A DNA stretch of 955 nt from Escherichia coli. GTDB taxonomy: Bacteria; Pseudomonadota; Gammaproteobacteria; Enterobacterales; Enterobacteriaceae. This document shows, piece after piece, positions 1-955 of the stretch (position 1 is its first letter; the number at the start of each line of letters is the position of its first letter). A program made the translations under genes and the position numbers. The stretch lies in assembly GCF_003334255.1 (NCBI RefSeq), contig NZ_QOWU01000181.1; one strand, 5' to 3'. The notes beneath the pieces are model-generated. The model was not told the origin of the DNA, searched no databases, and was given only the letters and a program-made list of their open reading frames with translations.

Positions 1-43
1 TCCAGCCATCAGCCGAAAGGCACCCGCGCATAATCTACGATTT

Positions 44-60
44 TTGCCCTGCACGGGCAA
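44..60. other. Second short hairpin (6-bp stem TTGCCC/GGGCAA, 5-nt loop) next to the terminator; function unclear
   Basis: Seen in sequence: 44..49 TTGCCC and 55..60 GGGCAA are perfect reverse complements. The hairpin is flanked by a T-run on its 5' side and an A-run on its 3' side on the plus strand, so it lacks a trailing U-tract in either orientation. It may stabilise the 3' end or belong to terminator architecture shared with a convergent neighbour. Confidence 0.3.
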
Positions 61-86
61 CAAAAAACCCGCCATCACAGCGGGTT
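58..86 (-). terminator. Rho-independent (intrinsic) terminator of the CDS
   Basis: A perfect 7-bp stem (66..72 AACCCGC pairing with 80..86 GCGGGTT) encloses a 7-nt loop (73..79). On the minus-strand transcript this reads AACCCGC-UGUGAUG-GCGGGUU followed directly by UUUUGUUG, giving a GC-rich core and a U-tract. It begins about 25 nt after the TGA stop. Confidence 0.75.
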
Positions 87-108
87 ATGACATGTTGTCG
101 GATACAGA

Positions 109-840
109 TCAGAATTTCAGGCCAATACCTACAACAACCCCGCTCGTGCGCCAGTCACCAGATCCGGAGCTTTCATACGCGACATCCATAGCAACACTTT
201 CATTCAGGTTAAATTGTGCACCAGCAGCCCATGCAAGTGCTGTTTTTTTCGTACTGTTGCTTTCAGAAAATCCACCGGTACTGTTAATGTTGTCCTTAAT
301 TTTCAGGTCAGCGGTAACTTTAGCTACGCCCATACCAGCCATTGCATACACACTGAGGTATTCGTTAAACCGCCACGAAGGACCGGATAGTAGACTCCAG
401 TAATTAGCCCTGATATCAGTTCTCGCTGAAGCTGCCGGATTTTTAACCTCTCTGGATTCATCTCCTGGGTTAATATCAATAAATGCCTGCGCATTAGTCA
501 TAGAACGCGCCCATGTAAAAGATGTTATAACACCAATCTCATCCGTTATCTCATAACGATACCTGATGCTCATCCCCTGAGGAGATTTGCCTTTGCCATC
601 ATGCCCCCGGACAGAAGCATCTGCATATTCGCCTGAATTGAAGTAGTGTCTGTTTGTAAAACGGTTAAAAGTATCAAGATTATAAAGACTTAAATCCTTA
701 ACAAAATTGTTCAGTCCAGAGAGCTGAAGATGAGCGTATCCGAAAGAAACTGTACTGTCACCTTGTGCTGCACAGGCAGGGGCTGCTACAAAACTCATCA
801 CAAAAGTTGTGCACGCAAAAATAATTCTGGCATGTTTCAT
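109..840 (-). CDS. Ail/Lom/PagC/OmpX-family outer-membrane beta-barrel protein precursor (Lom-like, virulence-associated), 243 aa
   Basis: Seen in sequence: uninterrupted 244-codon minus-strand frame, ATG at 840..838, TGA at 111..109. N-terminus MKHARIIFACTTFVMSFVAAPACA|AQ is a textbook Sec signal peptide. The C-terminal block ...AYESSGSGDWRTSGVVVGIGLKF ends in Phe, the aromatic beta-signal of outer-membrane barrels. From memory, the blocks STVSFGYAHL, MSIRYRYEITDEIGVITSFTW, SGPSWRFNEY..YAMAGMG, ALAWAAGAQFNLNESVAMDVAYE and SGSGDWRT are colinear with lambda Lom (STLSAGYLH, INVKYRYEFTDTLGMVTSFSY, AGPSVRVNEW..YAMAG, SLAWGAGVQFNPTESVAIDIAYEGSGSGDWRT..GVGYKF). No database search was run. Confidence 0.85.
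   Translation of the reverse strand: MKHARIIFACTTFVMSFVAAPACAAQGDSTVSFGYAHLQLSGLNNFVKDLSLYNLDTFNRFTNRHYFNSGEYADASVRGHDGKGKSPQGMSIRYRYEITDEIGVITSFTWARSMTNAQAFIDINPGDESREVKNPAASARTDIRANYWSLLSGPSWRFNEYLSVYAMAGMGVAKVTADLKIKDNINSTGGFSESNSTKKTALAWAAGAQFNLNESVAMDVAYESSGSGDWRTSGVVVGIGLKF
769..840 (-). other. Predicted Sec signal peptide (residues 1-24), likely signal peptidase I cleavage after A-C-A (or one residue later after C-A-A)
   Basis: Positively charged n-region (K2, H3, R5), hydrophobic core IIFACTTFVMSFVAA, then A-x-A-type motif ACA followed by AQGD. Pro at -2 relative to the Cys argues against a lipobox, so a lipoprotein is unlikely. The corresponding lambda Lom segment, as I recall it, is ...AVSGAPAWA|SEH. 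Confidence 0.7.
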
Positions 841-851
841 TTTTAGACTTT

Positions 852-855
852 TCCT
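852..855 (-). promoter_or_regulatory. Candidate Shine-Dalgarno (AGGA) for the CDS
   Basis: Minus-strand sequence reads ...ATTATAGGAAAAGTCTAAAAATG. AGGA lies 11 nt upstream of the ATG, which is longer than the optimal spacer but the only purine-rich SD-like element present. Confidence 0.45.
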
Positions 856-955
856 ATAATAAAATAACCCCGTATTATCTAAGATGAATTTAGTTTTATT
901 ACTTAATATTCATACTGACAGGCATATCAGTCATATATTGATGAATTAATGACCA
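856..955 (-). promoter_or_regulatory. AT-rich 5' region presumed to carry the gene's own promoter; weak candidate -10 GATAAT (plus coordinates 874..879)
   Basis: The region is visibly far more AT-rich than the CDS. On the minus strand GATAAT matches TATAAT at 5 of 6 positions and sits about 34 nt upstream of the ATG. No convincing -35 hexamer at 16-18 bp spacing (best is GTAATA, 3 of 6). The exact promoter cannot be fixed from sequence alone. Confidence 0.35.

Follow-up and report, generated by a model that had tools for sequence, protein, structure and literature searches.

The AT-rich spacer upstream of lom in a 933W-like Escherichia coli phage: an incidental plus-strand TATAAT and candidate weak promoters for lom

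A stretch of Escherichia coli DNA of 955 nt, referred to here as the window, carries on its minus strand a gene for an outer-membrane protein, and ends at its right-hand side in a markedly AT-rich region (841..955) with a perfect TATAAT on the opposite strand. The question raised by this locus is what the AT-rich region does. A reading made from the sequence only had considered a divergent promoter for a gene to the right, a by-product of base composition, and silencing by H-NS with counter-activation by PhoP or SlyA as typical of pagC in Salmonella. The analysis described here supports the second of these for the plus-strand TATAAT, which is judged incidental, and indicates that 841..926 is probably the 5′ flank of a lom moron with its own weak promoter.

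Identity and organization of the lom locus

The window was found to be 100% identical to a part of Escherichia phage PhiR12_3 (PV340552.1, 48996-49950, reverse strand), and prophages of a few E. coli genomes share 94–99% identity with it. PhiR12_3, a temperate E. coli phage, is 933W-like (Sepvirinae-type); of publications on it, only an incidental mention of the phage set was found. The gene order in 933W-like short-tailed phages of the Stx type is tail-fibre gene, L0126-like gene, L0127-like gene, lom, hok-like locus, L0129-like gene and giant protein, with the whole order on one strand and synteny unchanged across relatives. The lom gene was located at the same position in every relative examined, and the minus strand carries all 16 annotated neighbours, as well as every neighbour annotated across eight loci. 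The window is the lom region of a 933W-like phage with a minority allele of the upstream spacer (Table 1). Related copies were compared as two clades, with clade A consisting of the window and its relatives of 94–99% identity, and clade B of the O121 Stx2a phages, strain 2012C-4502 and strain OkiPb01717.

Table 1. Features of the lom region, in positions of the 955-nt window
Feature	Position	Strand	Basis or remarks
Intrinsic terminator 3′ of lom	86..66	minus	9-bp stem with 5 GC pairs, then TTTTTTGTT
lom, 243-aa Ail/Lom-family outer-membrane beta-barrel protein	109..840	minus	ORF, Pfam PF06316, Lom annotation
Intergenic spacer, L0127-like gene to lom	841..926	minus	86 nt, 24% GC
Conserved proximal block (TCTTAGATAATACGGGGTTATTTTATTATAGGAAAAGTCTAAAA)	841..884	minus	Covers candidate -10, leader and lom translation-initiation region
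lom Shine-Dalgarno core AGGA	855..852	minus	11 nt 5′ of ATG 840..838
Perfect TATAAT	855..860	plus	Sequence; judged incidental
P2 candidate promoter	-35 GTAATA 902..897; -10 GATAAT 879..874	minus	17-nt spacer; PWM score 6.9
IS1 target site (TAGTTTTA)	891..898		768-bp IS1 in three related prophages
Degenerate PhoP-like repeat GTTTTA-N5-TAATAT	893..909	plus	Present in sequence; not a PhoP box
P1 candidate promoter	-35 ATGACT 934..929; -10 AATATT 910..905	minus	18-nt spacer; score 6.4, clades A and B
3′ end of upstream gene (last 29 nt)	927..955	minus	Annotation, translation ..VINSSIYD*; stop TGA 929..927

The description of 841..955 as an AT-rich upstream region was correct as regards composition, with a G+C content of 25% for 841..955 and 24% for 841..926, lom being at 44% and the 19-kb phage locus at 52%. 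Not all of this DNA is intergenic, since 927..955 is the coding end of the preceding gene. That gene is co-directional with lom and encodes a protein of 205 aa, being a homologue of 933W L0127 and phi24B vb_24B_42, and it matches PHROG 425 (“membrane associated protein”, moron category, E = 9e-80).

Assignment of the lom product to its family was made on the basis of Pfam PF06316 (E = 9.8e-31, residues 88-243), and its N-terminus as seen in translation resembles a signal peptide (..APACA followed by AQ). The NCBIfam cut-offs for Rck and OmpX equivalogs were not reached, and Lom is therefore a member of the family and not an Rck or OmpX equivalog. With 243 aa, Lom is longer than the family models of ~170–200 aa. 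Residues 12-39 align with positions 12-39 of the Pfam Ail_Lom model and residues 88-243 with positions 49-199, which implies ~40 extra residues (about 40-87) close to what is predicted to be surface loop 1. Within the gene, divergence between the clades is also greatest over the first 90 nt (27%).

The predicted terminator of lom has a fold energy of -14.5 kcal/mol (z = -2.0), and the flank in which it is located (1..108) is 92–94% conserved between the clades. A second small hairpin (TTGCCC-TGCAC-GGGCAA; 44..60, minus strand) follows directly after this terminator, without a T-run, and is located between it and the start of a match to the Rfam sok model. The lom-L0129 spacer (428 nt) holds a hok/sok-type toxin-antitoxin locus that touches window positions 1..25, with coordinates 8865-9025 (minus strand) in locus L002 and 1637-1798 in the phi24B locus L019. 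The matches to the sok model, at 42 and 38 bits (E about 1e-7), fall short of the gathering score of 59, a Hok/Gef CDS is annotated by PGAP in relatives, and phi24B has a Hok-like ORF of 46 aa at 45784-45924. The 20-nt “microRNA-size” RNA 24B_1 of phi24B (TAACGTTAAGTTGACTCGGG, 45711-45692) falls within the match to the sok model, in antisense orientation to the hok-like leader, and on this basis resembles a piece of an antitoxin RNA of the Sok type; the 20-mer is not preserved exactly in the window phage. This RNA, published as lying “between lom and vb_24B_43”, was considered as a possible RNA of the flagged region and set aside, as it maps downstream of lom and outside the window.

The plus-strand TATAAT

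The perfect TATAAT which the sequence-only reading had placed over the ribosome-binding region of lom is indeed present, with the overlap amounting to one base (855), shared with the Shine-Dalgarno AGGA on the minus strand. Its occurrence is not unusual for DNA of this composition, as a perfect TATAAT on either strand was obtained in 44% of mononucleotide and 60% of dinucleotide shuffles of 841..955, and near-consensus -10 hexamers number 6 in this region versus 6.1 ± 2.3 in shuffles. The best two-hexamer sigma70 score was 9.6 versus 10.7 ± 1.6 in shuffles, with weights built on approximate consensus-base frequencies after the Hawley-McClure and Lisser-Margalit compilations. With shuffle frequency and sigma70 scores both at chance level, the suggestion that the hexamer is a by-product of AT-richness was borne out, and the weight-matrix scan for sigma70 sites recommended in the same reading gave no site in 841..955 above those of shuffles. 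The hexamer matches the -10 consensus at 6/6 positions, its best -35 (ATGTTT) at only 2/6, and it is without a TG extension; a separate promoter scan reported no site on either strand of 841..955.

The other suggestion, that of a divergent promoter serving a gene to the right, is refuted by the neighbouring genes, which are all on the minus strand, with the next gene ending at 927. Extension of the window to the right, through the 8 annotated loci and the ORF lists, revealed no divergent gene, and plus-strand ORFs to the right of the TATAAT were short ones only. One of these (884..949, 21 aa) was examined as a candidate gene and rejected on the loss of its ATG in the sister clade. The TATAAT at 855..860 is thus neither a sigma70 promoter by these tests nor a divergent promoter; it is the complement of AT-rich bases just 5′ of the Shine-Dalgarno sequence and a chance product of composition.

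Spurious promoters are frequent in AT-rich horizontally acquired DNA. A working promoter on the plus strand, whether at the TATAAT, at TTTCCT-17-TATTAT or at TTCATT-18-TAAAAT, would produce an RNA running to the right, in antisense to the spacer and the upstream gene's 3′ end. This RNA could have a regulatory antisense function, or it could reflect spurious transcription, the DNA being foreign and AT-rich. In its favor, the plus-strand scores of 9.3–9.6 exceed those of all sense sites and are within the top 24 when about 189,000 positions are scored across the 19-kb locus, and two of the candidates lie within the conserved block and are retained in clade B. However, the scores are as composition predicts, with 74% of shuffles at least equal to the best of them, and the perfect TATAAT is not conserved, reading TATACT in clade B as one of only 3 differences between the clades within the proximal block. 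A rightward gene and a conserved ORF are absent, as is any plus-strand terminator within 1 kb to the right, the plus-strand RNA is unstructured (z = +0.5), and about 94% of related prophages carry an unrelated sequence in place of the entire spacer. A working plus-strand promoter is accordingly considered very improbable. This grading, like those of the other alternatives below, is a stand-alone estimate and not a share of one total.

Conservation of the spacer and control of lom

The real signal in the flagged region is conservation on the sense strand of lom. The 44 nt before the ATG (841..884) differ between clades A and B by 6.8%, compared with 33–40% for the distal spacer (885..926; Fisher p = 2.6e-4) and 27% for the first 90 nt of lom (p = 6e-3); with two clades only, this amounts to one comparison, in which constraint on a promoter and constraint on translation initiation are inseparable. 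A second small conserved block is found at 912..898, followed by a variable stretch at 926..913, and the alignment is without indels. The AGGA of the Shine-Dalgarno sequence is invariant across window-type copies, and other versions of the spacer carry an SD-like AGGA or GAGA. A scan of IMG/VR with the conserved block returned 10 contigs, all with an identical setting and all falling into clades A and B. The block was also considered as a mobile promoter cassette, an idea left unsupported by the one context shared by the 10 IMG/VR contigs. Neither the sense leader (z = -0.1) nor the complete sense spacer (z = +0.3) is more structured than shuffled sequence, and an Rfam search gave no family match within 841..955; together with the value of +0.5 for the plus strand, these results give no sign of a structured RNA such as a thermosensor, riboswitch or antisense RNA.

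Two promoter candidates for lom were identified on the sense strand (Table 1). P2 has the best sense-strand PWM score; its -10 is invariant among the BLAST-derived copies, which form an unbiased set (the invariance of GATAAT in the IMG/VR loci is by construction, as the search pattern contains it), and its -35, with 3/6 matches, is not conserved. Judged from the sequence, P2 would have its start at ~867-871 and give a leader of ~27–31 nt. The -35 of P1 overlaps the stop codon of the upstream gene, and both of its hexamers are kept in both clades while the spacer varies. P1 and P2 each show 8/12 consensus matches, neither rises above the composition background, and sense-strand sites with at least 9/12 matches were absent. 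The best sense score of 6.9 is below the antisense scores of 9.3–9.6 and is unremarkable for such a composition. A stronger sense candidate, TTGAAG-19-TAAAAT with a score of 10.5, is present in the spacer of the 933W type. No -10/-35 motif at a fixed distance from the ATG was common to the four non-homologous spacer versions, and no published TSS, ChIP or promoter data were found for lom of Stx phages.

The spacer itself exists in several versions. Of 5426 complete E. coli genomes, 413 retain the 3′ end of the upstream gene as far as the stop codon, and the version of the spacer found in the window is present in 24 of these 413, homology in the others breaking at the stop codon. At least three further versions were recognized, namely an O121-Stx2a type (related to the window type), a Stx2_EC3283 type and a 933W/VT2-Sakai/phi24B type, all versions being of 23–31% GC and 79–90 nt with an SD each. 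On sequence comparison the spacer and the 5′ end of lom form a module that is exchangeable between phages and is bounded by breakpoints at the upstream gene's stop codon (window 927-931) and at 846 or 772. Homology to phages of the 933W/VT2-Sakai type ends at 772, within the signal-peptide coding region, and that to the Stx2_EC3283 type at 846, just past the ATG; almost all relatives show a further break at the upstream gene's stop codon. In the wastewater isolates SW071611, SW071619 and SW07163 from Galapagos the spacer is split by an IS1 (L020 about 1902-2669; target duplication TAGTTTTA), which leaves the proximal block and lom on one side and the distal conserved block with the upstream gene on the other.

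The distal spacer also bears on the proposal of control by PhoP and H-NS. The degenerate repeat at 893..909 had been called not convincing as a PhoP site, a judgment with which the present results agree: the pattern KGTTTA-N5-KGTTTA gave no match in 841..955 at up to 3 mismatches, and window-wide it gave 4 matches versus 3.4 expected. The GTTTTA half-site falls in the part of the spacer which differs between the clades and which IS1 splits, in three related prophages, at the half-site itself (target 891..898). The high-affinity H-NS motif TCGATAAATT gave 2 matches at up to 2 mismatches versus 1.4 expected, and its single match in the flagged region is within the coding sequence of the upstream gene. 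The scan for PhoP and H-NS sites in 841..955 that had been proposed thus produced no PhoP box and H-NS motifs at chance level only. As for composition, 841..926 has the AT-richness of H-NS-silenced xenogeneic DNA (24% GC over 86 nt), from which alone H-NS silencing of the spacer is plausible; no H-NS ChIP or expression data were found for the window phage. The Salmonella/pagC framing fits poorly, as this is the lom gene of an E. coli phage and not a chromosomal pag gene, and 841..955 was found not to belong with PhoP-activated promoters of the pagC type.

H-NS prefers AT-rich DNA. Under pagC-like control, H-NS would coat and silence the spacer, and PhoP and/or a SlyA-type factor would relieve this silencing under host-like conditions. 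A spacer of 24% GC flanked by DNA of 41–44% GC fits the H-NS preference, another member of the family, rck, is H-NS-silenced (PMC5727353), and lom of lambda is undetectable under some growth conditions (PMC2147009). Against this stand the absence of a PhoP box at 3 mismatches, the chance-level H-NS motif with its hit in the upstream coding sequence, and the state of the distal spacer, where the site of an activator would be expected and which is 33–40% divergent and split by IS1 in some strains; moreover, lom of phi24B is constitutively and strongly expressed in ordinary culture. Control of the pagC kind is hence regarded as improbable here.

Morons are defined by their own promoter, their own terminator and a deviating GC content (PMC3594210). 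The GC content of lom (44%) and of the spacer (24%) deviates from the 50–52% of the tail-fibre and downstream genes, and a hairpin with a T-run on the minus strand (Table 1) provides the terminator. The two genes upstream of lom are likewise low in GC (41–42%), the low-GC island extending over L002 9109-10831, that is from window position 109 to beyond its right edge, and the L0126-like gene matches PHROG 557 (“outer membrane protein”), so that three genes for envelope proteins (L0126-like, L0127-like and lom) may make up the accessory unit. The inclusion of two upstream genes in the island weakens the case for a promoter in the spacer, as an independent unit could start farther upstream.

Expression data are available for relatives. 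In uninduced phi24B lysogens lom was strongly expressed and remained flat by qPCR on induction, in contrast to a downstream late gene, which did change (PMC3342100), and in RNA-seq on induction lom changed 3.0-fold (p = 0.14) versus 29.9-fold for the portal gene (PMC4651098). Lambda lom is among the few genes expressed in lysogens (PMC7067206), and the regulation of its promoter has been described as little known (PMC2147009). The spacer of phi24B is non-homologous to that of the window, and transfer of these data is by analogy.

By this analogy with phi24B and lambda, a weak lom promoter within 841..934 is most likely. The low-GC accessory gene lies within the late/tail gene block and is transcribed in the same direction as its neighbours, and a weak sigma70 promoter with a poor -35, on the minus strand within 841..934, would allow lom to be expressed from the repressed prophage. 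GATAAT at 879..874 or ATGACT-18-AATATT at 934..905 could serve as this promoter, and the lom transcript would end at the terminator (86..66). In the lytic cycle, transcripts of the late operon could also run on through the spacer; such read-through into lom is possible because no terminator lies ahead of lom, with no minus-strand terminator-like site being found between lom and L002 position 11000.

Alternatively, the spacer could hold no promoter, with lom expressed by read-through only, whose source would be the Q-antiterminated late operon or else a promoter in or upstream of the two preceding low-GC genes. L0126, L0127 and lom would then form one accessory unit for which the spacer supplies the ribosome-binding region alone. 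Several observations agree with this, namely the absence of a consensus-grade promoter on the sense strand and of a terminator between the upstream genes and lom, the G+C content of 41–42% and the moron or outer-membrane PHROGs labels of both upstream genes, and the fact that translation-initiation constraint alone could account for the proximal block. However, conservation reaches 44 nt 5′ of the ATG, beyond the SD region, and is seen again in the second block at 912..898. In addition, lom of phi24B is uncoupled from late-gene induction, which pure read-through from the late operon cannot achieve, and all four versions of the spacer hold 79–90 nt of very AT-rich DNA with no collapse to a short gap. 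Expression of lom without a promoter in the spacer is therefore judged unlikely, and a weak promoter of its own is preferred.

It is also conceivable, at a level close to speculation, that 841..884 is conserved for a rightward promoter cluster as well, transcribing antisense into the membrane-protein gene in the manner of an excludon-like switch, possibly under H-NS control. If true, such a switch would separate lysogenic expression of lom from late-operon read-through.

Comparison with known systems

It is textbook knowledge that lambdoid and Stx phages have morons of the lom type and that these are expressed in lysogens, and in this respect the finding matters little. However, lom promoters are unmapped, even that of lambda (PMC2147009), and the window locus offers a compact and naturally variable test case, with two conserved blocks, a variable spacer, natural disruptions by IS1 and four exchangeable versions of the spacer. 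It bears on the way in which a prophage keeps a gene for an outer-membrane adhesin on inside a silent late operon.

Among known systems, the Salmonella pagC promoter resembles 841..955 in being AT-rich and located upstream of a horizontally acquired gene of the Ail/Lom family. Unlike pagC, 841..955 lacks a PhoP box and belongs to a phage late region and not to a chromosomal island, the gene upstream of lom is co-directional at a distance of 86 nt, and the phi24B orthologue is constitutive.

The lom genes of 933W (L0128), VT2-Sakai (H0144) and phi24B are like that of the window in gene order and in the Lom family of their product. Identity of the 933W type to the window is 79% over the body of lom and the flank that follows it, terminator included, and its spacer is similarly AT-rich, 79–90 nt long and equipped with an SD. 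The 933W type differs in that its spacer and the signal-peptide end of lom are non-homologous, homology stopping at window position 772, and in the score of its sense promoter candidate (10.5, compared with 6.9 for the window type).

Lambda lom, as described under the moron concept (Juhala et al. 2000; Cumby et al. 2012, PMC3594210), is an accessory outer-membrane gene placed after the tail-fibre genes. The window lom shares with it a deviating GC content and its own terminator, and lom of both lambda and phi24B is expressed from the repressed prophage. The window Lom is longer than is typical of the family (243 aa), with extra residues between Pfam positions 39 and 49, and the low-GC island at this locus, in contrast to lambda, includes two further genes. 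With these differences, the lom region of the window behaves like a classic lom moron of lambda and the Stx phages, a kind that is already known.
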